From: Candidatus Eiseniibacteriota bacterium | GTDB taxonomy: Bacteria; Orphanbacterota; Orphanbacteria; Orphanbacterales; Orphanbacteraceae | DNA length: 64,000 nucleotides | Assembly (NCBI GenBank): GCA_024276995.1 | Contig: JAJRWB010000076.1 | Coordinates: 164 to 64,163, forward strand | Direction: 5' to 3' | Part shown: positions 4,976 through 62,730 of the stretch, piece after piece | Position numbering within the stretch: position 1 is the first letter of the stretch | Layout of the letters: each line of letters opens with the position of its first letter | Notes under the pieces: generated by a model | Database searches by the model: none | What the model saw: the letters and a program-made list of their open reading frames with translations, nothing else | What the model was told of the DNA's origin: nothing | Program-made: the position numbers and the translations under genes

Positions 4976-5632
4976 ATGCTTCCTTTTGCAAAGATGACGG
5001 GGACCGTTCTTTTCGCCGGCGCGCTATTGGTGACGGGGTGTTCGAAGAGCGGTACGACCGATCCGGGTGATGGAGGAGGCGGTGGTGAGACGCGCGACGC
5101 CGCGTACTACGTCGACCAGGGATGGGCGAGCTATGACGCCGGCGACTTCATCGACGCCCGATCGCAGTTCGAGAGGGCGCTCAACCTGGATTCCACCTAT
5201 GTGCCGGCCATCTCCGGGGGGGCGTGGACGAGCATCGAACTCGGTTACACCGGGTTGTCGCAAAGTGAATTCGAACGGGCCATCGCGGAGAGCAGCGGTT
5301 ATATCCCCGCCCATGGCGGCCGGGCGGTTACCTCTCACGCCGAGGCGCTCAACATCCCGCAGCTCGCTGCGGAACGCCTTCCGGTCACTATCGAGGCGGC
5401 GTCGAAAGTGCTCGAACTCGGCGGGGAGAACTGGCAGTTCGATCGAATCGAGTCGATCGATGCCCGGCATATGAGAGTACTTTTGGCGCTCACCTATTTC
5501 GAGATGGCGAAATACTCCGATGCCCAGGCGCAGATCGACATCCTCGATCCGGGGAACGGCCTCAACCCGGGCGATCCCGACTACACCCGCCTCCTTCTGA
5601 TCGAGATCGAGAACGAAAGGGACCAGCTTTGA
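4976..5632 (+). CDS. Hypothetical lipoprotein with a TPR-like helical region.
   Basis: A signal peptide with the lipobox LLVTGC is present, and a Gly-rich linker follows. Its stop overlaps the TTG start of the downstream LVIVD-repeat gene, suggesting co-translation. Confidence 0.5.
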   Translation: MLPFAKMTGTVLFAGALLVTGCSKSGTTDPGDGGGGGETRDAAYYVDQGWASYDAGDFIDARSQFERALNLDSTYVPAISGGAWTSIELGYTGLSQSEFERAIAESSGYIPAHGGRAVTSHAEALNIPQLAAERLPVTIEAASKVLELGGENWQFDRIESIDARHMRVLLALTYFEMAKYSDAQAQIDILDPGNGLNPGDPDYTRLLLIEIENERDQL

Positions 5633-10778: not shown

Positions 10779-11276
10779 CTAAGGTACCTCCTTGCCCGAA
10801 AGAGTGCGGGCCTTTCTGGAAGACAGGGAGACGTCGGCCCGGCCGACCGTGGATTCCGGGAAAACCCGCCAGCACCCCCGATCGTTGGGACCCTGTCGGG
10901 CCGGACGCTCCCACTCCGATGATGGACGGTTCCATCCATCTACTTAACTATCTCGAATCAAGTTAGGATATTGCCGACGTATGTCAAGGTAAAAGCATCG
11001 CTAATCCTGGATACTTTCCTCCCGGAAATAGCTAATATACTGCAATAAGATAATCCCCCCGCGGCGGGCGCCCATTTTTTCCCGCATTGTGTGAAGGCAA
11101 GGCGATGGTGCATAATGCCCGGGCGGGTCGACGCGCCCCTCACGAGGAACGCCGGTGATCGATGCCGGGGGGCGGGATCGGACGTCCGGGCCGATTCGCT
11201 CGGAGGGAGATCACCCCTTACCCGCCGTTCCCCGACCCGGGGGACGGAGCCGAGCCTTTCGCAGACAGGTACACGA

Positions 11277-13712
11277 ATGATTCCTTGCTTCGCCGCGCTT
11301 TTCCTTATCTCCTTCAGCACGCTCCTGGTGGAACTCGCCATGACGAGGGTGCTCGACGTGATTCTCACGTCGAACATGTCGTATCTCATTCTCACGTCGG
11401 CGATCTTCGCCTTCGGACTCGCCGGCATTGTGAATACACTCGGATCGGCGGGGAAGGAGAGGTCGGGCCTTCCCACGGCACGCATCGCCTTGCTCTTCTC
11501 TTTGTCGATCGCGGTGATCCTCCCCGCCTTCAACGTGATCCCCTTCGATTTCGATGATCTCACCGACGATCTCGTGAAGCAGCTGATCTCCTTCGGCCTG
11601 ATGTACGTCGTTCTCTTCCTCCCGTTCTTCCTTTCCGGGCTGATGATCATCCGGATCTTCGCCGCCTTCCCATCCCGGATCCAGGTGCTCTATTTCTTCG
11701 ATCTCGTCGGCGCCGCCGTCGGATGTGTCGCGGTGGTTCCCTTCGTCCCTCTCATCGGACCGGGCGGAATCCTCTTTCTCGCTTCCGCGCTGGCGATGGT
11801 CACCGCCGCCGTGTTCACACGGCGGAAGATTCGTGCCGTCGCGATGGCGGCGGCGGCCGTTCTTCTCGCGATCCTCCCCTTCCAGAAGCGGCCCGCGTAC
11901 TACGACTTCCACGAGCATACCGACAAGAGGGGGGTCCGCTACGCGCGGGAGCATTCGAGAATCGAGCGGACCGTGTGGGATCCGGTTTCGAAAATCGATG
12001 TTCTCGAATACGACGAAACGAGGAAGCATATCGCCTACGACGGGGGAACCCAGAGCAGTACGATCACCCGGTTCGACGGCAACCTCGAGAAGCTGCGCTC
12101 GCGGATCGATCGCTATATCGACGCCGATACGAAAGATTCCTCCTCGGGCGACAATATCATCCGAAGGCATTTCTGGTTCGCCGGCGTGCTGGCGGCCCAC
12201 TACCTGAAACGGGACAGCGGCCAGGAAGTGCTGATCATCGGGAGCGCGGGGGGACAGGAGACGAAGGCCGCCCTCGTCTACGGCGCGAAGAGCGTCGACG
12301 CGGTGGAGATGGTCGGCGCGGTGATGGACCTCGGCCGGCGACGGTACGCCGACTACAACGGGAATATCTTCAACAATCCCCGCGTACATCCCCGGGTCGA
12401 CGAGGGGCGGAGCTTCCTGCGCTCGTCGGGGAAGAAGTACGACATCATCCAGATCTTCAGCAACCACACGTCGTCGAGCATCGCCTCGGGCACCGGTGCG
12501 GTGGCCACGACGTACCTGCAGACTTCGGACGCGTACAGGGAATACTTCAGCCACCTGAAGGAGGACGGCATCCTGCAGGTGAATCACCACATCTTCCCCA
12601 AGATGATCACCACCGCCGCGCTCGGTTGGAAATCGATGGGGCGAACGGGTTTCAGGGACCACGTGGTGGTGTACGTGAGGAAGGACAGGAATGACACGCT
12701 CCCCACGTTCCTGGTGAAGATGACACCGTGGACCGCTTCGGAGATGTCGGATTTGGCGAGGCTGTTCGAGGGGGACCGCCCGGCGGATTCCGACCGGTTC
12801 GAGTTGGTTGAGAACCCTCTCGATCAGGACGGAAGCTATCTCTCCGATGAGTTCTACAGCGGCGACTTCCCGAGGGAATTGGCGGCGACGATTCCGTACC
12901 GCGTGTCGCCGTCCACCGATGACAGGCCGTATTTCAACACTCTTCGCAAGAGGTTCGGCGTCATGAGCGAGGACGGAAGGAACTTCGTAGACCACTCGAC
13001 GGCGATGATCCTCAACTCGCAGCTGAGAAAGGGGATTCCCATGGACGTGGCCCACCTCTTTCTCCTCGGCGCGGTCTCCGTCGTTGCGGCGTTCGCATTC
13101 ATCTTCGTCCCCTTGTTCGGTTCGAAGGCGGGGAGGACCGGGTGGGAGAGGAAGAACAGCTCGCTCGCCTATTTCTCGTGTCTCGGGGCGGGGTTCATCA
13201 TCTTGGAGGTCGTCTATATCCAGTTGTTCATGCGGTTCATCGGTCCCCCGTTGCACACCTTCTCGACGGTCGTGTTCTCCCTCCTTTTCGCGGCGGGAAC
13301 GGGGAGCTATTTTTCGAAGGGACTCCGCGTCGATTCGCCCGGCCGGTGGCCCTGGCCGTTCCTGGCGATCATCGGGTACGGTCTTCTCCTCCTTCTCCTC
13401 GGTCCGGGCCTGTTCGACCTTTTCCTCGGCGCGGACCGGGGGGTGCGCATAGGGATATCGTTCCTTCTCCTATTCCCGATCGGCTTCTTCCTCGGGATGC
13501 CTTTTCCCATGGGGATCCTCTTTCTCGAGAAGAAACCGGCCGGGGCGATCGCCTGGGCGTGGGGGATGAACGGACTGTTCACCGTGGTCGGCGGGCTGGC
13601 GTGCATGGGTGTTTCCATCTTCTACGGATTCCGGGCCACCCTCCTCATGGCGCTGGCGATCTACGCCCTCGCCCTCGTCCTGTACTCCCGGCTGAGAGGC
13701 TCAGGCGCCTGA
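11277..13712 (+). CDS. Fused spermidine-synthase-like (polyamine aminopropyltransferase family) membrane protein.
   Basis: The N-terminal polytopic module has LVELAMTRVL...SY. The central region VLIIGSAGGQE...VDAVEMVGAVMDLGRRRY...DEGRSF...KYDIIQIF is a spermidine-synthase/methyltransferase fold. A second membrane module sits at the C-terminus. The start was chosen at the Met of MIPCFAALFL; the ORF-track N-extension was not used. Confidence 0.72.
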   Translation: MIPCFAALFLISFSTLLVELAMTRVLDVILTSNMSYLILTSAIFAFGLAGIVNTLGSAGKERSGLPTARIALLFSLSIAVILPAFNVIPFDFDDLTDDLVKQLISFGLMYVVLFLPFFLSGLMIIRIFAAFPSRIQVLYFFDLVGAAVGCVAVVPFVPLIGPGGILFLASALAMVTAAVFTRRKIRAVAMAAAAVLLAILPFQKRPAYYDFHEHTDKRGVRYAREHSRIERTVWDPVSKIDVLEYDETRKHIAYDGGTQSSTITRFDGNLEKLRSRIDRYIDADTKDSSSGDNIIRRHFWFAGVLAAHYLKRDSGQEVLIIGSAGGQETKAALVYGAKSVDAVEMVGAVMDLGRRRYADYNGNIFNNPRVHPRVDEGRSFLRSSGKKYDIIQIFSNHTSSSIASGTGAVATTYLQTSDAYREYFSHLKEDGILQVNHHIFPKMITTAALGWKSMGRTGFRDHVVVYVRKDRNDTLPTFLVKMTPWTASEMSDLARLFEGDRPADSDRFELVENPLDQDGSYLSDEFYSGDFPRELAATIPYRVSPSTDDRPYFNTLRKRFGVMSEDGRNFVDHSTAMILNSQLRKGIPMDVAHLFLLGAVSVVAAFAFIFVPLFGSKAGRTGWERKNSSLAYFSCLGAGFIILEVVYIQLFMRFIGPPLHTFSTVVFSLLFAAGTGSYFSKGLRVDSPGRWPWPFLAIIGYGLLLLLLGPGLFDLFLGADRGVRIGISFLLLFPIGFFLGMPFPMGILFLEKKPAGAIAWAWGMNGLFTVVGGLACMGVSIFYGFRATLLMALAIYALALVLYSRLRGSGA

Positions 13713-13834: not shown

Positions 13835-16003
13835 ATGGAATCACTGGAAGGCACATTCGAACGGATCGTTTTCCGGAACCGGGAGAACGCATGGACCGTG
13901 GGGCGTCTCCGCGAAGAGGGAACCGAGAGGCTTCTCACCGTGACGGGACGGCTCCCGGGTGTCGCGGTGGGCGCTTTCCTCCGCGTCCACGGGAAGTGGG
14001 TGGACAACCCGAAGTTCGGAAGGCAGTTCGACGTCGCCTCCTTCGAAGAGCGCGCGCCCGTCACCGAGAGCGGCATCGAGAAATATCTCGCGTCCGGCCT
14101 GGTGAAGGGGATCGGGCCGGAGCTGGCGAAGAGGGTGGTCGGTCGCTTCGGCGAGAAGACGCTCGACATGATCGATTCCCATCCGGAAAAACTGCTCGCC
14201 GTCGACGGGATCGGGAAGAAGAGGCTCGCGCTGATCCGGGAAGGGTGGAGCGAGCAACGGAATGTCCGCGAGATCATGGTCTTCTTGAGCGATCTCCCCA
14301 TCGGCGGCGCCATGGCGGGACGGATCTACGAGAAGTACGGAGAGTCGACCGTGGAGGTGATCCGCACCGATCCGTACCTCCTCGCCGAGGAGGTGTTCCT
14401 CCTCGGTTTTCAGACCGCCGACCGGATCGCCCGGGCCGTCGGGATCGATATCGATTCACCCCGCCGGGCGGAAGCGGGGCTGCTCCATCTTCTCGCGAGG
14501 CTCGGCCAGTCGGGCCACGTCTGCTATCCGAAGGAGGAGCTGGTCCGCCGGGCGGCGGCGTTCCTCGAGATCGACGAGCTGCCGGCGCAGGAGGCGGTCG
14601 ACCGGCTCCGGGAGAAAGGGGCGGTCGTCGTGGACGACGTGGACGGCGACGAAGAGGCGGTCTACCGCGTCGAGATGGCGGAAGCGGAGGAGACGGTGGC
14701 GCGCCGCCTCGCCCGCCTCCTCCGTGCCGGGAAAGGGGATCGCCCGATCGATTCGTTCGAGGCGATCCGCTGGGCGGGCGAGGCGCTCGGCCTCGATCTC
14801 GGGGATGAGCAGAAAGAGGCGGTCGAAGCGGCGATCGAGGGTCGCGTCACGGTGGTCACCGGCGGCCCCGGCACGGGGAAGACGACGCTCGTTCGGTCGC
14901 TCGTGGCGATCCTGAGACGGAGCGGCGACGAAGTGCTCCTGTGCGCCCCCACCGGTCGGGCGGCGAAGAAGATGGAGGAGGCGACCGGTTCCCCCGCGAG
15001 CACGATCCATCGCCTCCTCGAATTCGATCCGAGGAGCGGCGAGTTCCAGAGGAACGAGAAGAGTCCTCTCACCGCGGGAACCCTCATTGTGGATGAAGTG
15101 TCGATGGTCGATCTGTTGCTGATGCACAGCCTACTCGCCGCGCTTCCCGGGGAGTGCCGTCTCGTCCTCGTGGGCGACGTCGACCAACTCCCGTCGGTGG
15201 GACCGGGGAACGTTCTCCGCGACCTGATCCGTTCGAAGCGACTGAAGACGGTTCGCCTGACGCGGATCTACCGGCAGGCGCGGGAGAGCGCCATCGTGGT
15301 GAACGCCCACCTGGTGAACGCCGGCGAGATGCCCCGCCTCTCCGAGAGCGGGGGGGACTTCCACTTCATCGAGGTGGCCGACGCGGATGAGGCGCTCGAG
15401 AGGATCAAGCGCCTTCTTTCGCGGGAGATCTACGAGCGATGGGGATTCGACGTGATCCGCGACGTCCAGGTGCTCACCCCGATGAATAAGGGGAAGGCGG
15501 GGGTGCACAACCTGAACCGTGAACTGCAGGCGCTCCTCAACCCGCGCGGACCGGAGGTGCGCCGCGACGAGAAGATCCTTCGGCTCGGCGACAAGGTGAT
15601 GCAGATTCGGAACAACTACGAGAAGGAGGTCTTCAACGGAGACGTCGGCCGAATCATGGAGATCGACCCGGGGAAAAGCGAAATGGCGATCCGTTTCGGC
15701 CGCCGCCGCGTCGATTATCCCTTCGGCCATCTCGACGAGCTGACCCTCGCCTACGCCGCGTCGGTGCACAAGTCGCAGGGGAGCGAATACCGGGGGGTGG
15801 TGATTCCTCTCCTGGGGGAGCATTTCCCCTTGCTCCAGAGGAATCTCCTCTACACCGCACTCACCCGGGGGAGGGAGATGGTGATCCTTCTCGGCACGAA
15901 AAGGACGGTGGCGATGGCGGTGCGAAACAACCAGATCCACAGGCGGTACTCCTTCCTCCGCGAGAGGATCCGTCGGGCGGTGGATGCCGGGGCGCCGTGC
16001 TGA
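13835..16003 (+). CDS. recD2: ATP-dependent RecD-like DNA helicase (RecD2, SF1B).
   Basis: The N-terminal OB/HhH region, Walker A VVTGGPGTGKTT, and the IHRLLE, LVLVGDVDQLPSVGPG and SVHKSQGSEY motifs are present. The start was chosen at MESLEGTFERIVF. The ORF-track N-extension overlaps the previous gene. Confidence 0.9.
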   Translation: MESLEGTFERIVFRNRENAWTVGRLREEGTERLLTVTGRLPGVAVGAFLRVHGKWVDNPKFGRQFDVASFEERAPVTESGIEKYLASGLVKGIGPELAKRVVGRFGEKTLDMIDSHPEKLLAVDGIGKKRLALIREGWSEQRNVREIMVFLSDLPIGGAMAGRIYEKYGESTVEVIRTDPYLLAEEVFLLGFQTADRIARAVGIDIDSPRRAEAGLLHLLARLGQSGHVCYPKEELVRRAAAFLEIDELPAQEAVDRLREKGAVVVDDVDGDEEAVYRVEMAEAEETVARRLARLLRAGKGDRPIDSFEAIRWAGEALGLDLGDEQKEAVEAAIEGRVTVVTGGPGTGKTTLVRSLVAILRRSGDEVLLCAPTGRAAKKMEEATGSPASTIHRLLEFDPRSGEFQRNEKSPLTAGTLIVDEVSMVDLLLMHSLLAALPGECRLVLVGDVDQLPSVGPGNVLRDLIRSKRLKTVRLTRIYRQARESAIVVNAHLVNAGEMPRLSESGGDFHFIEVADADEALERIKRLLSREIYERWGFDVIRDVQVLTPMNKGKAGVHNLNRELQALLNPRGPEVRRDEKILRLGDKVMQIRNNYEKEVFNGDVGRIMEIDPGKSEMAIRFGRRRVDYPFGHLDELTLAYAASVHKSQGSEYRGVVIPLLGEHFPLLQRNLLYTALTRGREMVILLGTKRTVAMAVRNNQIHRRYSFLRERIRRAVDAGAPC

Positions 16004-16019
16004 GCGGGGGCGCCGTGCG

Positions 16020-17618
16020 ATGAGCCGCCGCAGCGCCGCCGTGCTCCTCGCGGTGATCGTCCTTCTCCGGTTCGTCTCGATGGGAGCGCCTCCTCTCTTC
16101 GACAAGACCGAGGGACGCTACGGCGAGATCGGCAGGGAGATGGCCGTCTCAGGCGACTGGATCACCCCGACGCTTCACGGGGGGGAGCCTTTCTGGGGGA
16201 AGCCTCCCCTTCATTTCTGGGCGACCGCCCTGTCGTTTCGTCTCTTCGGCGTGAACGAAACAGCGGCGCGCCTCCCCGGTTTTCTTGCCGGAATCGGAAT
16301 ATTGATCATAACTTACCGGCTCGCCCTCATGTTGTTTCGAGATCCTCCCGCCGCCCGGACCGCCGTCGTTCTCCTCGCCTCCTCGATGCTCCACTTCCTT
16401 CTCGGCGGCCAGGTTCTCCTCGACGGTACGTTCACCCTCACCCTCACCGGCGCCCTGGCGTCCTTCGGGAGGATCGTCGCGGGTGACCGCCGCAGGAGCG
16501 TCGGTCTCCTCTTTTTCGCGTTTCTCGGACTCGCCCTTCTCGCCAAGGGACCGATCGGCCCGGTGCTCGTGTTCCTCGCCGTGGCGATCCACGCCGCCTG
16601 GTCGAGGAGCACCGCCGCTTTTCGCGGGCTCCCTCTCCTGGCCGGTCCGATCGTCACCCTCCTCATCGCCGCCCCCTGGTACGTGCTCGCCGAACGGCGC
16701 ACCCCCGGCTTCCTTCGCTATTTCTTCGTGAATGAACACCTGCTCCGCTACACGAAGAGCGATTACGGCGACCTGTACGGCCACGGCCACGTGGCGCCCT
16801 ACGGCATGATCTGGCTTCTCGCCGCCGCCGCGTTCCTCCCGTGGACACCGCTTCTTGCCGTGCGCGCGTGGGGCGCGCTTCGCACCCCCCGGCGCGCGAC
16901 GGACAGGACGATCGACGACACCGAGTGCTTCTTATGGGCATGGGCGCTTGCCCCGCTCCTTTTCTTCACCCTCTCCCGTTCCCTCTCCTTCCCGTACATC
17001 TTCCCCGCCCTCCCCCCGTTCGCCCTCCTCGTGGTGCGCCGCTTCCGCGCGCCGTCGCGCGCCGTCACGCTCGGCGCCGGTATCACCGTCGCCCTTCTCC
17101 TCGCCGGTGCAGTGTACGGCGCCATCGATTTCGCGCCGCCGGCGCACGACACGGTACTCCTCGTCGCGCCGCTCCTGCTCATCGCTCTCGCCTTGGTCGT
17201 CGCCGGCCGTTTGCGCAACCGGTCGACGGCGCTGATCACCGCCGCCATGGTGATCCCGGCGGCGGTCACGCAACTCAGCCTCTTCTGGAGCGACGAGATC
17301 GGTGCGCAAAAGTCGACGCGTATCCTTGCCGACACGGTCGCACGGGACTGGGAGGAAGGCGATGTACTCTTCTTCGACGGTCTCCCCCTTTCGGCGGAGT
17401 TCTATTTCCGCGGCGCGGCGCGCGATCTTCATGGCGACGCCGCCGCCTTGGAAGAGGAAGCCGCCGCCGGGTGGGAGGAGAAGATTCTCTTTGTGCGAAA
17501 AGGCCGCGTGGAGTATCTTTCCTCGGCCGGATCATCCTTTCTCGAAAGGGAAGGAGAGGTCGGCCGGTACGTCCGGTACCGGTTCCGCGCGCCTGTGGGC
17601 GGTGCCCAAGAGGAGTGA
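16020..17618 (+). CDS. GT39/GT83 family (ArnT/PMT-like) membrane glycosyltransferase.
   Basis: TM1 is followed by the loop FDKTEGRYGEIGREMAVSGDW...FWGKPPLHFW, characteristic of ArnT-like undecaprenyl-phosphate sugar transferases, and multiple further TM helices. Confidence 0.8.
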   Translation: MSRRSAAVLLAVIVLLRFVSMGAPPLFDKTEGRYGEIGREMAVSGDWITPTLHGGEPFWGKPPLHFWATALSFRLFGVNETAARLPGFLAGIGILIITYRLALMLFRDPPAARTAVVLLASSMLHFLLGGQVLLDGTFTLTLTGALASFGRIVAGDRRRSVGLLFFAFLGLALLAKGPIGPVLVFLAVAIHAAWSRSTAAFRGLPLLAGPIVTLLIAAPWYVLAERRTPGFLRYFFVNEHLLRYTKSDYGDLYGHGHVAPYGMIWLLAAAAFLPWTPLLAVRAWGALRTPRRATDRTIDDTECFLWAWALAPLLFFTLSRSLSFPYIFPALPPFALLVVRRFRAPSRAVTLGAGITVALLLAGAVYGAIDFAPPAHDTVLLVAPLLLIALALVVAGRLRNRSTALITAAMVIPAAVTQLSLFWSDEIGAQKSTRILADTVARDWEEGDVLFFDGLPLSAEFYFRGAARDLHGDAAALEEEAAAGWEEKILFVRKGRVEYLSSAGSSFLEREGEVGRYVRYRFRAPVGGAQEE

Positions 17619-21789: not shown

Positions 21790-24700
21790 ATGGATGATCG
21801 GAAACGCTCCCGATGGATCGGCCCGCTTTCCCTTCTTCTCGCCGGGGTAGGGGGGAGTCTCGTCGCGCCTGTACTCTTCCGGGAGGTGCGCGCCTCGTTC
21901 GGCGCCACGTCCGGCGTGATCGGTCCCCTGTGGGCTTTCTTCTTCGCCGGCGCGGCGGCGGGGACGTTTTCCTACCGGCTCGGCGCCCGAGGGAGATGGC
22001 CCTTCTCTTTCGGACTCATGCCGCTGTTCGGCGTGCTTCTCCCTTTCCTTCCCTCTATCGGAGCGACCGGCGCGCCGTACATTCTTCTCCTGATCGTCCT
22101 TTGTTTCGCCGGGTTCATCTTCTCCCGGTTCGCCGCATCGGCGGCGACCGGGGATGTCGGCGTGCTTTCTCCGGCATCTCTCGCGGCGGGAGTTTTTCTC
22201 GGATCGATCTTCGCTCTCAGGTTCCTTCCGGCATGGGGGAACAGGCCCGTTCTCGTCGCGGCGTGGGTCGCTCTCGCCGGAGCATCGATCGCCGCCTCCT
22301 CGTCGCGCCGGACGGCGAGGGAAAGGGACGTCACCCTTTCCGTCGACCGACCGGAGACGGAAGGGGAGATTCCCTTTTTTCCGGCGCTCCTCGTGCTTGC
22401 GGGCGTGGCGATCGGACTCTTCCTTGTCGGCGCGGGCAGGGTGCTCGACATGGTATGCGGCGCCACGATGCGGATGGAGCTGATCGAAGCGGCCGCCGCG
22501 GCGGGAGGGATCGCCGCCGGTTTCCTGGCGGCCGGCTCGGCGGCGCGCAGAAGCGGCCCGATCCTCTTCGCTCCCGCCGCGATCCTCGCCGCCGCGGCGG
22601 CGGCGGGGATCGTCTCTCTTCACGGCGCGTTTCCAGGCCTCTTCGTCGATCTTTCGGGGGGACACGGCTACCGTTTCGAGGCGCTTCTCCGGGCGAAGGA
22701 GATCGTCGCGGCGTTGATCATCGCCCCGTGCGCCTTCTTCGCCGCCGCCTCCGTCGCTCTCGGCGCGCGGGGCGTCGTCGCCGTCTCCGGGACACGGCGT
22801 TTCGCCGCGGCGGCGGCCGGTCTCGCCGTCGCCTTCGCCGCGGCGCCGTCGCTCATCGTGCGGGCGACCCTCCCGGGGGATCTCCTTTTCGGGACGCTCC
22901 TCTTTTTCCTCATCGCGGTGATCGGCGTCTCCCGCCGGAGTGGACGGAAGGCGAAGGCCGCGGTGCGGGCCGTCGCGCTGCTCGGTTTCGCCGCGACACT
23001 TCTTGCCCTCGTCCAGCCGGTGGAGTGGCAAAGCGCCCGGCTCGCATCGGGGGCGTATCGCCGGATCAACACGATACTCAAGCAGCGCGCGTCGGAAGGG
23101 GGCGAGCAGCCGCCCGATTCGCTCCTCTACTATGGGGAGGGGAGAAGCAGCACGTATGCCGTCGCTTCGACCCCCCTCGGCCCGACGCTCCTGAAAAACG
23201 GTTCGGACGACACGGGCGACGGACTCTATTCATCGGTCGATATTCTCCTCGGGAGACTTCCCCTCCTCTTTCGCCCGGCACCGCCCCGCATCCTTCTCCT
23301 CGGGGCCGGTCGCGGGATCACCGCCGGATCGCTTCTCGAGATGGAAGTCGACTCCGTCCTCGTGGTGGAACCGGAGGAGGAGCGTATCGACGCCACCCGC
23401 GCGCTGGGCGAGCAAAACGGCGAGTACTGGACCGACCGGAGATTCCACCTGATCCGGAGCGATCCGGGCCGGTTCCTCGGTACGTCGACCGGAGAATTCG
23501 AGCTGATCATCGCGCAGCCGTACGACGTGTGGAGCATCACCGGCGCCGTTCGGGGGACGGAGGACTTCTACCGGAAGGTGAAGGGCCGTCTCGCGAAGGG
23601 GGGAATCTTCTCCGCGTGGGTGCCGCTCATCGGTGTGGGCGAGGACGACGTGAAATCGATGCTCGCGACGATCGCGGCGGTCTTCCCGCGGATCGTGGCG
23701 TTCCAGGCGGCCCGCCATGACGGGCTCGTGGTGCTCGCGGGGGAAGAGCCGTTCCGTCTCCGTGTCGAGGCGCTCGTCAATCGATGGCGGGGAACCGGCT
23801 TCGGCGACGAGTTCGCCACCGCCGGTATCAGCGCCGCCGCGGACCTGATGCCGTTCGCCCGCTTCGACGAGACGGCCGGCGCGACGCTCTTCGGTGCGGC
23901 GCGGTTGAACGACCGGCGGAAAACCCCGGTGGAGTTCGGGGCGGAGATGGCGCTTGCCGACCTTTCCGGAAGAAACTATCTCGATCTGATCCGCTCGGTC
24001 CCCTGGGACGGGCGATCGATTCTCGATTTCGAAGGGCTCGACGATGAGACGAAGGCCGATTTCCTCTACCGGGCGGGACGCGCTTTCCGCCGGACCGCCG
24101 ATCCGGAGCATGGATACCCGTTCGCCGAAGAGGCGTATCGACTCGCCCCCTCCACCGGCAGAGCGCTCCTGCTCGCCTATTTCGTGAAGGTGCTCGACGG
24201 CGACATGGAGCGAGTGCTCTCCATCGAGGAGGAGGCGCTCCGGCGCGACCCCGACAACGGGATGATGATCCGGAACTACGCGGACGATCTCTTCGTCGCA
24301 GGGAGGTACGAAAAGTGCATCGCGTACATGACCGACGTGATCGACCGCGGATTCGAACCTCCATGGTGCTACCTGATCCGGGGGAAAGCGTACACCATGC
24401 TCGACCGGCTTGACGAGGCGATCCGGGACATCGGCAAGGCGAAGGAACTCGACCGTCTCCAAGACAGACGGGGCAACATCAACTATTTTCTCGGTATGGC
24501 CTATAAGAGGCGGGGCGATCTCGAGAAATCGAATTATTACCTGTCAAGGGCGATCGGGACGAACCCGAGGCACTACAACGCCCGCTACAATTTCGGAGAG
24601 AACAAGGTGAAGCTCGGGAAGCTCGCCCGCGACGAGTTCGAGGCGAACTACTACGCGCCATTCAACCGATCGCGCGCCGATTCTCTCTACCGGCTCGCGT

Positions 24701-24993
24701 CCGCCGATTTCTTCCGGCCCGAGAAGGCCGCCCAGGTGGAGCGGGATCTGGTGCTGATCATCAACACGACACCGAACCATATGGGCGCGTATCTGCTGCT
24801 CGCCGAGTTCTACTGGCGCGCCGGGAATGATGCGAAGGAAGGGGAAGCGATCAGCCGGATGGTGTCCCATTTCCAGGGGAGCGCCAAGTGTCTCGCCCTT
24901 CTCGACAACTATCTGGCGCGGACCGGGGGGCCGGAGAAGCGCGCCCGGTACCGCCGGATCATCCATGATGTGCTGAGCCGGGCCGGTTCGTGA
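21790..24993 (+). CDS. Large polytopic membrane protein with a spermidine-synthase-like domain and C-terminal TPR repeats. It is a paralogue of the 11277..13712 gene.
   Basis: Many TM helices are followed by LLLGAGRGITAGSLLEMEVDSVLVVEPEEERID...FELIIAQPYDVW...GGIFSAWVPL (a spermidine-synthase/methyltransferase fold). TPR repeats then follow (YRAGRAF..., RGKAYTMLDRLDEAIRDIGKAKELD, FLGMAYKRRGDLEKSNYYLSRAIGTNP). Confidence 0.7.
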   Translation: MDDRKRSRWIGPLSLLLAGVGGSLVAPVLFREVRASFGATSGVIGPLWAFFFAGAAAGTFSYRLGARGRWPFSFGLMPLFGVLLPFLPSIGATGAPYILLLIVLCFAGFIFSRFAASAATGDVGVLSPASLAAGVFLGSIFALRFLPAWGNRPVLVAAWVALAGASIAASSSRRTARERDVTLSVDRPETEGEIPFFPALLVLAGVAIGLFLVGAGRVLDMVCGATMRMELIEAAAAAGGIAAGFLAAGSAARRSGPILFAPAAILAAAAAAGIVSLHGAFPGLFVDLSGGHGYRFEALLRAKEIVAALIIAPCAFFAAASVALGARGVVAVSGTRRFAAAAAGLAVAFAAAPSLIVRATLPGDLLFGTLLFFLIAVIGVSRRSGRKAKAAVRAVALLGFAATLLALVQPVEWQSARLASGAYRRINTILKQRASEGGEQPPDSLLYYGEGRSSTYAVASTPLGPTLLKNGSDDTGDGLYSSVDILLGRLPLLFRPAPPRILLLGAGRGITAGSLLEMEVDSVLVVEPEEERIDATRALGEQNGEYWTDRRFHLIRSDPGRFLGTSTGEFELIIAQPYDVWSITGAVRGTEDFYRKVKGRLAKGGIFSAWVPLIGVGEDDVKSMLATIAAVFPRIVAFQAARHDGLVVLAGEEPFRLRVEALVNRWRGTGFGDEFATAGISAAADLMPFARFDETAGATLFGAARLNDRRKTPVEFGAEMALADLSGRNYLDLIRSVPWDGRSILDFEGLDDETKADFLYRAGRAFRRTADPEHGYPFAEEAYRLAPSTGRALLLAYFVKVLDGDMERVLSIEEEALRRDPDNGMMIRNYADDLFVAGRYEKCIAYMTDVIDRGFEPPWCYLIRGKAYTMLDRLDEAIRDIGKAKELDRLQDRRGNINYFLGMAYKRRGDLEKSNYYLSRAIGTNPRHYNARYNFGENKVKLGKLARDEFEANYYAPFNRSRADSLYRLASADFFRPEKAAQVERDLVLIINTTPNHMGAYLLLAEFYWRAGNDAKEGEAISRMVSHFQGSAKCLALLDNYLARTGGPEKRARYRRIIHDVLSRAGS

Positions 24994-33337: not shown

Positions 33338-35821
33338 TCAGCGAAGCAGCATGAGCTTCCCTGTTCGGCTGAATCGGTCGCTCCGGATCCGGCAGAAATA
33401 CGTGCCGCTCGCCGCCGGAACACCCGCCATATTCTCACCGTTCCAAACAACGCTGTGCGTATTCTTTTTCCTGAAACCGTCGACAAGTGTGCGAACGAGT
33501 CTGCCGTTGACATCATAGATGCTGAGATTTACCCAGGAATCACTTGCAAGGGAGTATTCGATCGTGGTGACCGGATTGAAAGGATTCGGATAGTTGCGAA
33601 CCAAAGCATTCCGGGGTATTTCGGTCTCGCCCGACCCGTCATCGGGGACGGACGTGAAGATCTGCTTTTTCGAGCCGATCCCGTACAGGCTTCCACCGTA
33701 GGAACCCACGTAGATCGTTCCGTCGGGACCGATTGCCGGTGATGAATACACGAACCCGCCCGTATCGTAGTGCCACAATTCGGTCCCGTCCGGATCGATC
33801 GCGTAGATGTTGCCGTCTATCGATCCCACGTAGATCGTGCCGTCGGCACTGACTGCCGGGGACGAGTGCACATCATTCCCCATGGTGAAGTGCCACCTCT
33901 CGGTGCCATTGTCCGGGTCGATCGCATAGAGATTATTGTCGTCCGATCCTACGTAGATCGTGCCGTCGCTTCCCAGCGCCGGGGAAGAACCGACGTTCCC
34001 GCCGGTGGGGAAGCGCCACTGTTCGACGCCGGCGGGGCTGACGGCGTAGAGGTTGCCATCTCCCGATCCCACGTAGACTGTGCCGTCGCTTCCCAGTGCC
34101 GGGGAAGAACTCACGGAGCTTCCCGCAGTAAAATGCCATCGTTCCGTGCCGTCGGGGTTGATCGCGTAAAGATTATGGTCGCTCGATCCCACGTAGATCA
34201 CGCCGTCCCCGTCCAGCGCCGGGGAAGATTGTATCCCCGCTATTCCCCCGGTGGGAAAGCGCCACCGTTCCGTTCCGTTGGGATTGATCGCATAGAGGTT
34301 GCCGTCCTTCGAACCCACGTAGACCGTGCCGCCCATACTTACAACCGGAGAGGATTCCACATCAGATCCGGTGGCGAAACGCCACCGCTCGGTACCGTCT
34401 GGGTTGATCGCATAGAGAGTGTCGTCGGCCGATCCAACGTAGATCGTGCCGTCGGCAGCCACGGCGGGAGACGATCTGACCCAGCCTCCGGTCGGGAAGC
34501 GCCACCGCTCCGAACCGTCGGGGTTGACCGCATAGAGGTTGTTATCTCCCGATCCCACATAGATCGTGCCGTTGTAGATCACCGACGGGGAAGAGAACGT
34601 GAAAACCGCGGCGGCGAAGTCCCATTGCAGGTCCGGTGTCCTGGCGCCCAGGTGGGGGCTATGTCCGGAATGCCCGCCGTCACGGCGGAACATGGGCCAG
34701 TGATCCTCCCCGAGAGCGCAAAGGTAACCTTCCCCCGCTCCGACGTAGACGGTGCCGCCGTAGCCGAGTACCGGCGAAGAGTCGACGTGAATCCCCGCGG
34801 TGAGTTCCCAGCGCCACAGCCTCGTACCGTCTGCGTTGAGAGCGTAGACATACCCATCCCACGAGCCAATATAGATCGTGCCGTCGGCGCCGATCGCCGG
34901 TGAAGAATAAACCGGTCCTCCGGTGGTGTAGTGCCACTTCTCGGTGCCGCCGGCGTCAAGCGCGTAGACGTATCCATTTCCCGATCCGATGTAGATCGTG
35001 CGGTCGGAACCGACCGCCGGGGAAGACCTGACCAGCCCCCCGGTCTGGAAGTGCCACCGCTCTGTGCCGTCCGCGTTGACGGCGTACACCCTGCCGTTCC
35101 CCGACCCCACATAGAGTGTGCTGTCGGAACCGATCGCGGGGGACGAATACACGCCTCCTCCAGCGTCGAAACGCCATTGCTCGACACCGGCGGAATTGAT
35201 CGCGTACAGATAGTTGTCTTCCGATCCCACGTAGATGATGCCGTCGGTTCGAATGGCCGGGGAAGAATTGACAGCGTCTCCCGTGACGAAGCGCCACTGC
35301 TCGGTGCCGTCCGGGTTGATGGCGTACAGGTTGCCGTCCCACGAGCCGACATAGATCGTGCCGTCCGCACCGATCGCCGGGGAAGATCTGACATCATCCC
35401 CGGTGGTGAAGCGCCATCGCTCGGTGCCGTCTGGATTGACGGCATAGAGATTGCCGTCCTGCGCCCCCACATAGATCGTGCCGTCGGCGCCGATCGCCGG
35501 GGAAGACTCTCCTGTCGATCCGATGTTATATTGCCAGCGGAGCGTGCCATCGGGTTCATAGGCGTAGACATATGTGGAAGCGGCGATATAGATGGCGCCG
35601 TCGGAACCGACCGCCGGGGAGGAGGCCACGGGATCTGCTCCGATGAGCTTGCTCCATTTCAAGTCGGATGTCCGGGTACCTTGGTAGGAACTTTGCCCGG
35701 TGTGCGACAGGCCATGCCGAAACAGGGGCCAGGGGCCTTCGTCCGATTGAGCAAAAACGGTGGTCGCAACAGCAAGAGTAACGGCAAGCGCGATACAAGT
35801 GGATGCTCTCATTTTTCTCAC
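33338..35821 (-). CDS. Secreted tandem PQQ-like (BamB-like) β-propeller protein (827 aa) with a Por/T9SS-type C-terminal sorting domain.
   Basis: The signal peptide is MRKMRASTCIALAVTLAVATTVFA. At least 14 repeats have the form DGTIYVGS.DGNLYAINPDGTERWRF. The C-terminus is NYPNPFNPVTTIEYSLASDSWVNLSIYDVNGRLVRTLVDG...WNGENMAGVPAASGTYFCRIRS...TGKLMLLR. Confidence 0.75.
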   Translation of the reverse strand: MRKMRASTCIALAVTLAVATTVFAQSDEGPWPLFRHGLSHTGQSSYQGTRTSDLKWSKLIGADPVASSPAVGSDGAIYIAASTYVYAYEPDGTLRWQYNIGSTGESSPAIGADGTIYVGAQDGNLYAVNPDGTERWRFTTGDDVRSSPAIGADGTIYVGSWDGNLYAINPDGTEQWRFVTGDAVNSSPAIRTDGIIYVGSEDNYLYAINSAGVEQWRFDAGGGVYSSPAIGSDSTLYVGSGNGRVYAVNADGTERWHFQTGGLVRSSPAVGSDRTIYIGSGNGYVYALDAGGTEKWHYTTGGPVYSSPAIGADGTIYIGSWDGYVYALNADGTRLWRWELTAGIHVDSSPVLGYGGTVYVGAGEGYLCALGEDHWPMFRRDGGHSGHSPHLGARTPDLQWDFAAAVFTFSSPSVIYNGTIYVGSGDNNLYAVNPDGSERWRFPTGGWVRSSPAVAADGTIYVGSADDTLYAINPDGTERWRFATGSDVESSPVVSMGGTVYVGSKDGNLYAINPNGTERWRFPTGGIAGIQSSPALDGDGVIYVGSSDHNLYAINPDGTERWHFTAGSSVSSSPALGSDGTVYVGSGDGNLYAVSPAGVEQWRFPTGGNVGSSPALGSDGTIYVGSDDNNLYAIDPDNGTERWHFTMGNDVHSSPAVSADGTIYVGSIDGNIYAIDPDGTELWHYDTGGFVYSSPAIGPDGTIYVGSYGGSLYGIGSKKQIFTSVPDDGSGETEIPRNALVRNYPNPFNPVTTIEYSLASDSWVNLSIYDVNGRLVRTLVDGFRKKNTHSVVWNGENMAGVPAASGTYFCRIRSDRFSRTGKLMLLR

Positions 35822-42145: not shown

Positions 42146-43885
42146 CTATCTTACCAGGGTGATCTTCACATGGTCCGAACGTTTGCCCGCCTCGAGCCGG
42201 GCGAAGTACGTTCCGGATGGGACACGGCCGTCCGGCGTCCAGGTGAAGAAGTGCGGACCGGCGCCGAGGCGCTCCGATATGAGCGTCTCGACGCGCCTCC
42301 CCGCGACGTCATAGATCGCGAGCGTCGCCCGCTCCTCCCCCTGAAGGCGGAACGAGAGCGTGGTGGCCGGGTTGAACGGGTTCGGCAGAGCCGTGAGATA
42401 CGGTGGAAGGGAAGGGACGCCGCCGCTTTCCACCGGCGGTTCGCCGCCGCGGATGTCGAGCACGTGGGGGAGATGGTCGGACGCTCTTCTCGTGTCGTCC
42501 CGGCGCAGCCTCGAGCCGATGAGCATGCGCTCCTCGAGAAGAGGTGTATGAAGTATGAAGCTCTTCGCCACGTTGACCCGGCTGTCGGTGTAGCTGATCC
42601 TGTCGATGTGGCCCGGGCCGTACTCGTTCCGTTCGTCGTACCACGTGTAATCCTGGCGCACCGAGTTCTGCCTCGACAGGAGGGCCGTCAGATCGGTGCC
42701 GTCCCAATCGGGACGGAAGTCGGCGCCGTAGGCGGCGTTGTTTGCGATGTCTCCCGTCAGAAGCGTCTTCACCTGGCGGGAGTCGCCGTACATATTCGCA
42801 TCTCCCACGAGGATGATCGCCGTGTTCCTCCCGATTTTCGCGTCGCTCCCCCCTTCACGGGCGTCTCGCACGAACGCCATCACCTCGTCGATCTGTTGCT
42901 GCCTCGCGCCGTCGTTGGAACAGCACGACAGGTGCATGTTGATGAGAAGCAGGTCGTTCTCGAATCGATCGGGGAGGTCGATCAGCGTCGCCCACGCCCG
43001 CCCGGGGCTCGCCACCCACGCGCCGATGAAAGGGAACCGCGACACCGTGTGGAGCTGTCCGCCGTCCCACGCTTGGTACCATCTCCCCCTCAGCCGAGAA
43101 GCGACACGGCTCTTCGTTTCGTTTCCCGTGTGATTGTAGATCTCCTGGAAGGCGATGATGTCCGGATCGAGGGCGTCGAAGATCCGGTTGTACTCGGCGT
43201 AGCGGATCCAGGGACTGTCGCGGAGGACGTTGTACGTCAGGATCCTCACGTCGGTCGCCTTCTCCCTGGCGATGGGAATCGGTTCGGCGTCGAAGGGGAT
43301 CGTCTCGTCGAAGGTGTATTCCACCGACGCATCATCGTCGGGTATCCGGTCGCCGCCGGCAAGATCACGCATCGCCAGGCGGATCGTTTTCGAGGAAAAA
43401 ATCGGCGAGCCTCCCACCGTCGCGTTCCGGGGGATGGAGATTTCGAATTCCTTCGCCGAATGGGCGGGCGCCGTGATGATACCGGCGTCGACCCAGTGGA
43501 GCATGGTGTCGAAGAAAAGCCCCCGCCGCTCGCCGAAACTCCACGAGAACTCCGCCCCCATGTCGCCCGTGGCGCCGTCGAAGTCGCCGTCGATGTAGAG
43601 GGTGAGTCGGTTCGCCTCCTGGAGCACCAACTCGCGCCTCAGCTTCACACGGATGTACAGGTTTCGCCTGTCGTTCGCCACGCCGAGGGAGATCAGATCG
43701 ATCCCACCCCTCCCGGCGTCGCCCGCCGGGTCGGAGGCCGATACGCGCAGGCCGTCCCACTCCTCGGTTACACCGTCCACGGCGATCGGCGCGGCGCGTC
43801 CGTCGGCGGTGGGCGAGTCGATCGCCAGCATCGCCGGCAGGAGGAGGAAGGGGGGAGAAAGGAATCGGAACGCGCTGCGGAGCAC
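42146..43885 (-). CDS. Secreted endonuclease/exonuclease/phosphatase (EEP) family protein with a Por/T9SS-type C-terminal sorting domain.
   Basis: A signal peptide is present. The EEP core is ILTYNVLRD...DIIAFQEI...LINMHL...ILVGDANMY...GHIDRISYT. The C-terminus is LPNPFNPATTLSFRL...LAIYDVAGRRVETL...WTPDGRVPSGTYFARLEAG...KITLVR. The GTG start follows a GGAGG ribosome-binding site. Confidence 0.72.
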   Translation of the reverse strand: MLRSAFRFLSPPFLLLPAMLAIDSPTADGRAAPIAVDGVTEEWDGLRVSASDPAGDAGRGGIDLISLGVANDRRNLYIRVKLRRELVLQEANRLTLYIDGDFDGATGDMGAEFSWSFGERRGLFFDTMLHWVDAGIITAPAHSAKEFEISIPRNATVGGSPIFSSKTIRLAMRDLAGGDRIPDDDASVEYTFDETIPFDAEPIPIAREKATDVRILTYNVLRDSPWIRYAEYNRIFDALDPDIIAFQEIYNHTGNETKSRVASRLRGRWYQAWDGGQLHTVSRFPFIGAWVASPGRAWATLIDLPDRFENDLLLINMHLSCCSNDGARQQQIDEVMAFVRDAREGGSDAKIGRNTAIILVGDANMYGDSRQVKTLLTGDIANNAAYGADFRPDWDGTDLTALLSRQNSVRQDYTWYDERNEYGPGHIDRISYTDSRVNVAKSFILHTPLLEERMLIGSRLRRDDTRRASDHLPHVLDIRGGEPPVESGGVPSLPPYLTALPNPFNPATTLSFRLQGEERATLAIYDVAGRRVETLISERLGAGPHFFTWTPDGRVPSGTYFARLEAGKRSDHVKITLVR

Positions 43886-43886
43886 T

Positions 43887-44411
43887 TCATTCCTCCAACT
43901 CGATGCCGAGGCCGTCGGCGATGCGGTTCACGAAGGCGAAGTAGGCGGTGATGGCGCAGATATCGTGGATCGTCCGATCGTCGAAACCGGCGGCGCGCAG
44001 GGCGAGCGCGTCTTCGGCGCCGACATCGCCCGGCGCGAGGGTGAGGCGACCGGCGTAGTCGAGCATCGCCCGTTCGTCATCGCGGAGGTCGGCCTTCGTA
44101 TAGTCCGATTCGAGCGCCTCCACGAGGGAGTCGCCCCGTGGATCGCCCTCTTTCTTAAGCGCCGCACGGAGACCCGCCCCGTGATGCACCGTTCAGTAGC
44201 GGCAGCCGTTCAGCCCCGACACGGTGAGGGCGATCATCTCCCGGCGGCTCCTGGCGAGGGGGCCGGGGCGGTGCATGAGGGTGACGTAGAAATCGTAATG
44301 ATTCTTCATCACCGGCGGGTTCACGCCGTGGACCCGGATGATGTTGTCCCTGTCGGGCACGCGGTGGCGTTCGGGGATTTCCTCGTTAGGTGTGTACCGG
44401 ATGAACGCCAC
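43887..44411 (-). CDS. Carboxymuconolactone-decarboxylase/AhpD-family peroxidase-related protein interrupted by an in-frame TGA at 44193..44195. It is a candidate selenoprotein with a CxxU motif.
   Basis: The two six-frame ORFs 44193..44549 and 43887..44189 share a frame and are separated only by TGA. Read across the TGA, the sequence is REMIALTVSGLNGCRY-[TGA]-TVHH, the AhpD/CMD CxxCxxxH motif with the second Cys position encoded by TGA. A hairpin follows 10 nt downstream, CACGGGG-CGGGU-CUCCGUG, whose GGUCU apex resembles a bacterial SECIS. The GTG start at 44411 is preceded by a GGGGGAGG ribosome-binding site. Confidence 0.6.
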
Positions 44412-44413
44412 GG

Positions 44414-44944
44414 TTACCTCGCCTCCCCCGCGCCGCGCCGGCCGAAGCCGAGGAGGTCGGAGTACGACGATCCCACCACGGCACCGGTGGCGCCGGAAAA
44501 GCGACGCGCGAGTTCCTTCACTTTCGCCCACGCCTGCCCGTCGGTGCACTCGTCGTCCACCACCGCTTCGAACTCGATGAACGCGCCGAGCCCTTCCACG
44601 CGGTCGATATGGATCCTCACATTGTCATGGATATAGAGAAGTCTCGTCTTACGGACGACGCCGATCACACCGAGGGTGGAGGCGAGCGCCTCGTGGAGCG
44701 GCCCGGCATCGACCGGCACCACCACGTAGTCGCTCCCTCTTGCCGCCGCGTCGTCGGGCCGAATGTAGGCGATCAGTTCCGCCCCGCCCGCCGTTTTCCG
44801 GATCTTGAGCCGTCCCTCGGTGGAACGGAAGTACGTGTCGGTCTGCGCCAGTTCGGCGGTGCATGGCCCCGCGATCTCCCCGGCGATGCGGAGAGCGCGG
44901 TCGAGGTCGATGCACCGCGCCTTCCACTCGATGTTCCTGTTCAT
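44414..44944 (-). CDS. CYTH-domain protein (class IV adenylate cyclase / triphosphatase-like).
   Basis: MNRNIEWKARCIDLD...DTYFR...GRLKIRK...YIRPD is the CYTH signature with EWK.R and acidic patches. It is 176 aa. Confidence 0.75.
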   Translation of the reverse strand: MNRNIEWKARCIDLDRALRIAGEIAGPCTAELAQTDTYFRSTEGRLKIRKTAGGAELIAYIRPDDAAARGSDYVVVPVDAGPLHEALASTLGVIGVVRKTRLLYIHDNVRIHIDRVEGLGAFIEFEAVVDDECTDGQAWAKVKELARRFSGATGAVVGSSYSDLLGFGRRGAGEAR

Positions 44945-61182: not shown

Positions 61183-62730
61183 CTAGGGCGGTCCGATCGA
61201 TTCCCGGAGCGTCCGTAGACGCTCGAGTTCCGCCTGAGCCGGGGCGAAGTCGGGTGCTTCCCTCAGAGCGTTTTCGCACGCCCGGATCGCCTCGTCGGTC
61301 CGACCGAGAGAGGAGTAAAAACTGGAGAGGTTCATATAGATCAGAGGGAGCTCCGAGCGGTCGCCGTCGGCCACCGCCCTTCGGAACGACTCTTCGGCGA
61401 GGGTGATCTCTCCACGCCGCGCATGGAAGAGGGCGATTTCCGTTTCCTGTTTCGCGAAACCGTGGTGCCTGGCGATCGAAGAGATGCCTAGGACAATCAT
61501 GACGGCGGCGAGGAGGAGGGAGAGAAGAATGTCGCGCACCGCCCGGCGGCCGATGAAAGTCGCCAGGAGAAAGATGCCGTGCGCGGCGAACGGGATCATT
61601 CCGATCACGATCGGCAGGCGGTAGCGGGAGGTGATGTAGAAGACGAGAAGAGAGAAGAAGTAGGCACATACGAACAGGTGAAGATGCCCGATCCGGCGCC
61701 ACCGCTTCATGCCGAAGAAGAAGCCGATCGCGGCGAACGGCGAGATCGAGAGGAACGACGGGAGGAAACCGCTGAAAAGGGGAGAGATCCTGGCGAAGTA
61801 GTATTGGTTGTAATTGTCCGGGACCTCGTAGCCGTTGAGAGCGAGGCGGAACTTGAGGAGGATCAGACGAAGTTCCTTCCCCGGATGGGTGACGGCGAAG
61901 CGGACCGCCCTGCGGATCCAGAAAGAGGAGACTTCCGAAGGCCTGAGACTCCTTCCTTCGATCGATTCGGCATATCTGCGGGCGTCTTCCTCTTCGTGTT
62001 CCGGGACGCTTCGCACTTCGGGCGGCGGTGAGTGGATTCCCGACGCGCCCGGGTGATTTCCCACGTAGAGATTGATACCGGCGTCCGATTCGGTGAGAAC
62101 CCAGTCTCCCGCGACAAGCCGGTTTCGGGTGGTAACGGGGGCTATGGCGAACGCGGCTCCGACGAGAAAGAGAACGGCTTCACGAAGAGCCCTCCCCCGG
62201 CCGGGACGTTCCACCCTGAAAACGATCCATAAGGCGAGAAGTGGAAGGGCGAAGAGGAGATTGCCGCGGCCGCACACGGCGATACCGAGAAGGAGTCCCG
62301 CCTGCGCGAAATGAGTCTTCTTTCCGCTTTCGAGGGCATGGGTGAGGCGAAGGAGCGCGCCGGCGAGAAAGGGAAAAACGATCACCGATTTCAGGATCAT
62401 GGCGTCCTGGAAAACGAGTGTCCCGTAGAGCGATGCGATCAGCCCGGCGAGGATTCCCTCGCGCCTGGAGAAGAGCTCGCGCGTCAGGAAGTAGAGGAGG
62501 ACGCACGTGAGAGATCCGATCAGCGCCTGGACGACGCGTACCGCCATCAGGTCGCGGCCGAGGAGCGCATAGAGGGAGCCGAGAAAATAAGGGTAGAGCG
62601 GCGCCTGATAGAAAACGGTGTCGCCGGCCAGGTCGCCCGCCGCGATCCGTCCCGCCCATCGATCGTACGAGGCGGCATCGATCATCAGGTCGTCGAAGTA
62701 GGGCGAGTGGCGGAAATCGGAGAGGAACAA
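61183..62730 (-). CDS. GT39/PMT-like membrane glycosyltransferase with C-terminal TPR repeats. The N-terminus appears disrupted.
   Basis: The ArnT-like loop is SDFRHSPYFDDLMIDAASYDRWAGRIAAGD...FYQAPLYPYFLGSLYALLG, followed by multiple TM helices and C-terminal TPR units (YMNLSSFYSSLGRTDEAIRACENALREAPD). The expected TM1 (KKIDWIAALLVFSIALGTRLLFL) is encoded in frame immediately upstream of the TTG at 62730, but lies after an in-frame TGA at 62806-62808 with no canonical start between them. Confidence 0.65.
   Translation of the reverse strand: MFLSDFRHSPYFDDLMIDAASYDRWAGRIAAGDLAGDTVFYQAPLYPYFLGSLYALLGRDLMAVRVVQALIGSLTCVLLYFLTRELFSRREGILAGLIASLYGTLVFQDAMILKSVIVFPFLAGALLRLTHALESGKKTHFAQAGLLLGIAVCGRGNLLFALPLLALWIVFRVERPGRGRALREAVLFLVGAAFAIAPVTTRNRLVAGDWVLTESDAGINLYVGNHPGASGIHSPPPEVRSVPEHEEEDARRYAESIEGRSLRPSEVSSFWIRRAVRFAVTHPGKELRLILLKFRLALNGYEVPDNYNQYYFARISPLFSGFLPSFLSISPFAAIGFFFGMKRWRRIGHLHLFVCAYFFSLLVFYITSRYRLPIVIGMIPFAAHGIFLLATFIGRRAVRDILLSLLLAAVMIVLGISSIARHHGFAKQETEIALFHARRGEITLAEESFRRAVADGDRSELPLIYMNLSSFYSSLGRTDEAIRACENALREAPDFAPAQAELERLRTLRESIGPP

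Follow-up and report, generated by a model that had tools for sequence, protein, structure and literature searches.

The minus-strand frame 44411..43887 of the window, the window being the whole 64-kb stretch of DNA that was analysed, is very probably one gene, encoding a 174-residue AhpD-like selenoprotein (TIGR01926, CMD fold) in which the UGA at 44195..44193 is read as selenocysteine (Sec) through a SECIS element located directly downstream. The preliminary description of this DNA had proposed a CxxU selenoprotein of the AhpD/CMD family. This proposal is supported by the match to TIGR01926, by the alignment of Cys with Sec, by the presence of TGA in 80 of the best 80 homologous loci, and by the criteria published for bacterial SECIS elements (bSECIS).

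Gene structure and reading frame

The frame, as read from the sequence, begins with a GTG codon (44411..44409), ends with a TGA (43889..43887), and contains only one internal stop, the TGA listed in Table 1; it exhibits neither frameshifts nor additional stops. The peptide around this TGA reads ...REMIALTVSGLNGCRY*TVHHGAGLRAALKK..., with the motif LNGCRY-[TGA]-TVHH, and the Sec codon corresponds to residue 73 of the joined product. The frame thus bears out the earlier observation of two minus-strand ORFs that share a frame and are parted only by the TGA. The GTG start is backed by the alignment to the MAF/MAY N-termini of full-length homologues. The purine-rich GGAGGCGAGG, a probable ribosome-binding site, is separated from the GTG by 5 nt and reaches into the 3' end of the CYTH-domain gene located just upstream, whose TAA stop is at 44416..44414. 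On the other side lies the gene of an Exo_endo_phos/FlgD_ig secreted protein on the same strand, so that the selenoprotein gene is tightly packed between its two neighbours. The 100-aa ORF that follows the TGA is not a separate gene but the C-terminal half of the selenoprotein.

Table 1. Features of the selenoprotein gene and of its immediate neighbours (window coordinates).
Feature	Coordinates	Strand	Basis or details
Complete CDS of the predicted selenoprotein	43887..44411	-	Frame, TIGR01926 and PF02627 matches, N-terminal alignment
In-frame TGA, predicted Sec73, second position of the CxxU motif C70-R-Y-U73	44193..44195	-	Cys/Sec alignment, TGA conservation
Active-site segment	44181..44240	-	E58 44240..44238, C70 44204..44202, Y72 44198..44196, U73 44195..44193, H77 44183..44181
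Predicted bacterial SECIS inside the CDS	44158..44190	-	MFE fold, bSECIS criteria, conserved pairs, synonymous bias
Upper stem, CACGGGG with CUCCGUG	44183..44177 with 44171..44165	-	Starts nine nt past the TGA
Apical loop, CGGGU	44176..44172	-	First base 16 nt after the UGA
Lower stem, 5 bp	44190..44186 with 44162..44158	-	Beyond a 2x2 internal loop
100-aa ORF after the TGA, C-terminal half of the selenoprotein	43887..44189	-	ORF list; NCBI-sourced protein P0003, on a contig of 64,442 bp
Probable ribosome-binding site, purine-rich GGAGGCGAGG	44417..44426	-	Sequence reading; putative function
CYTH-domain gene	44944..44414	-	
Exo_endo_phos/FlgD_ig secreted protein gene	43885..42146	-	

Family membership and active site

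The product was searched with a Cys placed at the TGA. It matched TIGR01926 (NCBIfam, peroxidase-related enzyme) with 123.4 bits against a cutoff of 81.8, residues 23-170 being aligned with profile positions 31-173 of 178, and PF02627 (Pfam, CMD) with 41.7 bits against a cutoff of 23 (E = 1.2e-10). The TIGR00777 model, which describes AhpD proper, was not passed (15.7 bits against a cutoff of 191.95), and the gene is therefore filed as AhpD-like and not as AhpD. The TIGR00777 profile aligns residues 56-84 of the product with positions 116-144, which gives an offset of 60 and maps E118, C130, C133, and H137 onto the product.

The closest solved structures are 6K40 and 2OYO (E = 5e-22 and 2.6e-23, respectively, over residues 22-170). 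Both exhibit the motif N-x-C-x-Y-C-x-x-x-H-G-A, the second Cys of which falls on the TGA, and a Cys is also found at this position in the full-length homologues P0004, P0005, and P0009. The preliminary description had placed the TGA at the second Cys of the AhpD/CMD motif and had suggested looking for a Cys aligned to it in Cys-containing homologues; both the two structures and the three homologues exhibit one.

With regard to the other residues of the active site, the full-length homologues (alignment A1) agree without exception in E58, Y72, and H77, and almost without exception in C70. Proton relays have been described in M. tuberculosis AhpD, comprising Glu118/Cys130/His132/Cys133/His137, and in PA0269, comprising Glu36/Cys48/Tyr50/Cys51/His55 (PMC3141380). 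Glu58, Cys70, Tyr72, Sec73, and His77 of the window protein follow the relay spacing E-(11)-C-x-x-C-x-x-x-H, which is the same as in PA0269 and M. tuberculosis AhpD. Two homologues depart from this pattern. P0018 has an Arg at the Sec position (CFYR), which a change from TGA to CGA could give rise to, and in P0008 both redox residues are gone (GTRYA). The two variants are probably inactive or repurposed.

Conservation of the TGA codon

One genome per species (GTDB representatives) was scanned; of the 578 relatives found, the 80 best loci were retained. A TGA is present at the same codon in 80 of these 80, in the context N-x-C-x-Y/F-[TGA], and the tblastn matches of these loci span residues 1-174. 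When grouped by record titles, the best 80 loci are distributed over about ten phyla: Gemmatimonadota (29 loci), Acidobacteriota (18), Planctomycetota (13), Chloroflexota (5), Marinimicrobia / Fidelibacterota (5), Calditrichota (3), and Candidatus Eisenbacteria (2, namely L009 and L064, both in the TGA form), with 5 further loci from Synergistaceae, Desulfosarcina, Ignavibacteria, and unclassified records. Homologues that end or diverge at the TGA had been named beforehand as an observation that would speak against a selenoprotein; instead, 80 of the best 80 loci continue into a well conserved C-terminal half. Downstream of the TGA, the GC3 is of the coding type (0.76-0.82) and the identity to homologues is 56-71%.

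The protein databases present a different picture of the family. Only a few of the relatives found by the protein search are full-length; they stand beside many fragments of approximately 100 aa, which cover only the C-terminal 45-57% of the query and make up most of the 120 database homologues listed. Such fragments are the signature of gene callers restarting past an in-frame stop. Eight full-length entries (P0001, P0002, P0006, P0007, and P0010-P0013) exhibit a W at the Sec position. The DNA of one of them (L083:124-663) has a TGA at this site, and its translation with table 11 does not give the recorded protein, which indicates that the W is an artefact of gene calling with genetic code 4. 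Mis-annotation as split genes or with a false Trp is systematic across the members of the family.

The hairpin downstream of the TGA

The hairpin described in Table 1 is the MFE structure of the TGA and the next 45 nt (48 nt in total), with -17.1 kcal/mol. When the context is extended to 71 nt, the MFE structure uses another pairing, in which the 3' arm pairs with a second CACGGGG copy located downstream (z = -0.83). When the 26-nt windows of this gene are ranked by stability, the hairpin comes at the 8.7th percentile. The stability by itself is unremarkable for a GC-rich coding sequence, and in view of the z value and of the percentile we dropped it as a main argument. The signal beyond chance is comparative: it consists of the TGA in 80 of the best 80 loci together with a positionally conserved hairpin. 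The second CACGGGGCG copy (window 44133-44141, minus strand) is located 40 nt downstream of the 5' arm and competes for CUCCGUG; it is absent from the homologues as a conserved feature.

The bSECIS model comprises four criteria, including an upper stem of 4-16 bp, a spacing of 16-37 nt, and an MFE <= -7.5 kcal/mol (PMC13188914). The window hairpin passes all four, with an upper stem of 7 bp, a loop of 5 nt, a G at loop position 2 followed by another G, a spacing of 16 nt, and the MFE given above. The SECIS-like hairpin that had been proposed earlier, formed by CACGGGG and CUCCGUG around CGGGU, is thus present and agrees with the published model. Rfam was searched with 43800-44500 by E-value and with the whole window at the gathering threshold; all matches were at chance level, and none was to a SECIS model. 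This indicates only that Rfam contains no matching model, and it is not evidence against a SECIS.

Conservation of the hairpin and constraint on synonymous sites

On their MFE fold, 59 of the best 80 homologues pass the bSECIS criteria, versus 160 of 800 shuffles. RNAalifold returned an empty consensus for the alignment of 80 sequences, so pairs were counted instead on an explicit structure, using the gap-free 80-sequence alignment A2. The five core pairs (columns 21-25 with 31-35) are standard in 73-78 of the 80 sequences. In eight cells, both partners of the pair have changed, and the observed values were reached by no shuffle.

Conservation of the nucleotides is by itself weak evidence, since the hairpin also codes for the conserved peptide HHGAGLR; the synonymous sites are more telling. 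The Arg codon is CGT in 59 of 80 sequences, versus a background of 9.7% in the same genes, and its U pairs with the A of CAC. The first Gly codon is GGA or GGG in 68 of 72 (background 42%), the purine pairing with U; GGC, the commonest Gly codon overall, is used 4 times. CTC, which contributes to the stem, accounts for 70 of 80 Leu codons (31% in the same genes), and the Ala codon, which gives a loop G, is GCG in 60 of 60 (37% in the same genes). Part of the nucleotide conservation stems from the peptide, but this synonymous bias is not explicable in that way. The first His codon, located before the stem (A2 columns 16-18, window 44186-44184), is CAT in 55 of 80 sequences, versus a background of 28%. 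In A2, C19 can pair with G38, leaving column 37 bulged, in 45 of 80 sequences, and column 18 can pair with column 39 in 52 of 80 (columns 37-39 correspond to window 44165-44163). Such an extension of the stem with a bulge may explain the CAT bias of the first His codon.

The Planctomycete members exhibit other peptides at this position (HHSRGLR, HHGQGLG), yet they form hairpins displaced by 2 nt, whose loops, GGUCU or GGUC, contain the same GGU. With regard to the Cys form, the control comprised two loci only. In L081, the codons are ordinary and GC-rich, and no hairpin of this kind is present. L082:1501-2046, from a Planctomycetota MAG (JBDRKQ010000031.1), has a TGC at the Sec position and keeps the stem ACGGAGC/GCUCCGU, with a GUC loop that lacks the G residues of the SECIS loop. 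From its sequence, L082 may represent a recent conversion from Sec to Cys with a "fossil" SECIS. Its gene is flanked by a Pyr_redox_2 reductase gene and by Se_S_carrier (PF11823) and Aminotran_5 genes.

Stop codons, Sec machinery, and genomic context

The 24 Pfam-supported ORFs of the window end in TGA (15), TAG (8), or TAA (1), and the selenoprotein gene itself also ends in TGA. As TGA is the commonest true stop in the window and terminates this very gene, the recoding is local and site-specific and does not reflect a change of the code. A crude screen of the window for further genes with an in-frame TGA gave no convincing second candidate.

No tRNA of any kind, and hence no tRNA-Sec, was found by ARAGORN in the 64-kb window, and tblastn with E. 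coli SelA, SelB, and SelD against the same 64 kb gave no match better than E = 0.4. Over the 83 homologous loci, the same three queries gave only a weak match, to the GTPase domain of SelB, in L004. The window is a small sample of the genome, so the absence of sel genes from it carries little weight.

The window is otherwise ordinary chromosome, with Ffh, an AddAB-like pair, LspA, Tag, OmpA, ABC transporters, and many FlgD_ig/Por_Secre_tail secreted proteins. There is no adjacent ahpC in the window, the neighbours of the selenoprotein gene being CYTH, Exo_endo_phos/FlgD_ig, OmpA, Tag, and LspA. No synteny was observed between the window and the homologous loci, and even the most widespread neighbour family is present at no more than 6 of the best 80 loci. 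The partial Ffh (SRP54) gene at 8-1165 has its best named relatives in Candidatus Eisenbacteria (69-72% identity), which makes this the likely lineage of the window. Large secreted proteins are encoded at 5629-9375 (LVIVD-repeat), 33338-35821 (PQQ-like beta-propeller), and 42146-43885 (Exo_endo_phos), each ending in a sorting-type domain, FlgD_ig or Por_Secre_tail. Very large proteins with a Spermine_synth-like domain are encoded at 11091-13712 and 21790-24993, one of them also with TPR repeats, and PMT/PMT_2 glycosyltransferase-like membrane proteins at 15984-17618 and 61183-62730.

Alternative explanations

The gene could be an ordinary AhpD-like gene of the CxxC type, in which a nonsense mutation, a pseudogene lesion, or an error of sequencing has put TGA in the place of a true or ancestral TGC or TGT. 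TGA is one base away from both, and the window is probably metagenome-assembled, all relatives among the species-representative loci being MAGs. Against this stands the identical TGA in 80 of the best 80 loci, from independent assemblies and species; in view of it, a miscalled base, a nonsense mutation private to this genome, or a split gene is very unlikely. The GC3 of 0.76-0.82 and the identity of 56-71% kept past the TGA, as well as synonymous sites shaped to keep the hairpin, point in the same direction, and we regard a lesion or an error as extremely improbable. Two separate genes were also considered and were rejected, the TGA being kept in 80 of the best 80 loci. A relic of a selenoprotein family is very unlikely. 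It would imply that the organism has lost the Sec machinery and that the locus yields a fragment of 72 residues or a separately initiated C-terminal piece of 100 residues; the machinery genes and tRNA-Sec were indeed not found in the 64-kb window, and among the proteins of the public record the gene is represented by the 100-aa downstream ORF alone. The hairpin, in contrast, is intact and passes all bSECIS criteria, the five relay residues are intact in a frame without frameshifts or further stops, and the two Candidatus Eisenbacteria loci, L009 and L064, keep the TGA form.

In general, read-through of a stop codon can be promoted by a hairpin that follows it, and several database homologues are recorded with a W at the site. 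The UGA might thus be read as Trp, Cys, or Gly, through reassignment of the code or through near-cognate read-through stimulated by the hairpin, in both cases without Sec. The W entries are artefacts of gene callers, as the TGA in L083 indicates, and among the true stops of the window TGA predominates (15 of 24), that of the selenoprotein gene included. Moreover, the site is that of the redox-active Cys of CxxC, a position at which a Trp or a Gly would abolish activity, and the loop has the conserved G residues typical of a SECIS bound by SelB. Insertion of a standard amino acid is therefore exceedingly unlikely.

Proposed mechanism and significance

With regard to the mechanism, we infer Sec insertion in the source organism, as well as the substrate and the reductant. 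In bacteria, SelB.GTP.Sec-tRNA(Sec) binds the apical loop of the SECIS and delivers Sec at the UGA. The stem-loop 44190..44158 would recruit this complex to the ribosome paused at the UGA 44195..44193, and the terminal UGA of the gene, which is not followed by such a hairpin, would lead to normal termination. By analogy with the biochemistry of AhpD and with DR1765, Sec73 would be activated through the Glu58/His77 relay and would constitute the reactive centre. The distant Cys homologues suggest that the product is most likely a selenol/thiol oxidoreductase in peroxide defence. Sec73 could attack either a hydroperoxide directly or an oxidised partner of the peroxiredoxin type, and a transient selenenylsulfide between Sec73 and Cys70 would then be re-reduced by a cellular reductant. 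A DR1765 deletion mutant is sensitive to H2O2, and its full complementation needs the cysteines of the CxxC motif (PMC8945050); it is because of this phenotype and of this requirement that DR1765, among characterised proteins the closest Cys homologue, is relevant here.

The gene is a correct but ordinary case of a family known since 2005, and it opens no new mechanism. Its value lies mainly in annotation, as the gene is cut in two at the UGA in the public record, where the 100-aa tail is filed as a separate protein. A corrected annotation would restore a redox enzyme to the antioxidant inventory of the organism, and it would flag the genome as that of a probable selenium user, which bears on the trace-element ecology of an uncultured lineage, probably Candidatus Eisenbacteria. 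A broader reading is possible, but we hold it only tentatively: the nearest clade may be an almost obligate Sec branch of the AhpD-like family, with a SECIS embedded in HHGAGLR, protein and RNA constraints that co-evolve, GGUCU hairpins in the Planctomycetes, and a Cys revertant with a loop-less fossil stem, and the gene may be the first noted use of Sec in Candidatus Eisenbacteria. In our literature search, no mention of selenocysteine together with Candidatus Eisenbacteria was found.

Comparison with known systems

The hairpin was compared with the SECIS of E. coli fdhF (MG1655 record), which was folded in the same way. The two have the same architecture, a stem-loop that starts a few nt past the UGA, and in both there are G residues at a distance of 20-23 nt, counted from the U of this codon. 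Their energies are comparable, with -14.9 kcal/mol for the fdhF SECIS and -17.1 kcal/mol for the window hairpin; the GGUC loop of fdhF is at nt 22-25 and the CGGGU loop of the window hairpin at nt 20-24. The string GGUCU is common to both, and the Planctomycete members have a true GGUCU loop. The stem sequences differ, and the window hairpin has a 2x2 internal loop. A counterpart of the bulged U of fdhF is at most putative; in 45 of the 80 homologues, the base at column 37 can be bulged.

At the protein level, DR1765 of Deinococcus radiodurans (6K40) and its Dgeo homologue (2OYO) share the active-site helix NxCxYC..HGAxLR with the window protein. In contrast to the latter, they are Cys proteins (CxYC), with neither UGA nor SECIS, and the N-terminus of the window protein is shorter. 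M. tuberculosis AhpD exhibits an identical relay spacing, with Sec73 at the place of Cys133, and both proteins have the all-helical CMD fold by family membership. The sequence similarity between them is very weak, and the window protein has a Tyr in place of His132, as in PA0269.

The closest known system is the AhpD-like selenoprotein family. AhpD-like CxxU proteins (COG2128) were added to the known selenoprotein families in 2005, when 27 of their sequences were reported from the Sargasso Sea (PMC1088965). Among the selenoprotein families of the GOS survey, "AhpD-like 1" ranked fourth in abundance, 299 Sec sequences and 902 Cys homologues being counted for it (PMC2398784). The family is listed in a 2026 review as "AhpD-like protein, TIGR01926, CxxU" (PMC13188914), and BSepDB has a family page for the AhpD-like selenoprotein (PMC13326102). 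The window gene is like these in its membership of TIGR01926, in its CxxU motif with Sec in the second position, and in having, immediately past the UGA, a SECIS whose small apical loop contains a G. The family has widespread Cys homologues, and the window gene differs from it in nothing of substance. As every feature of the family that could be checked is present, the window gene belongs to the known AhpD-like CxxU family.
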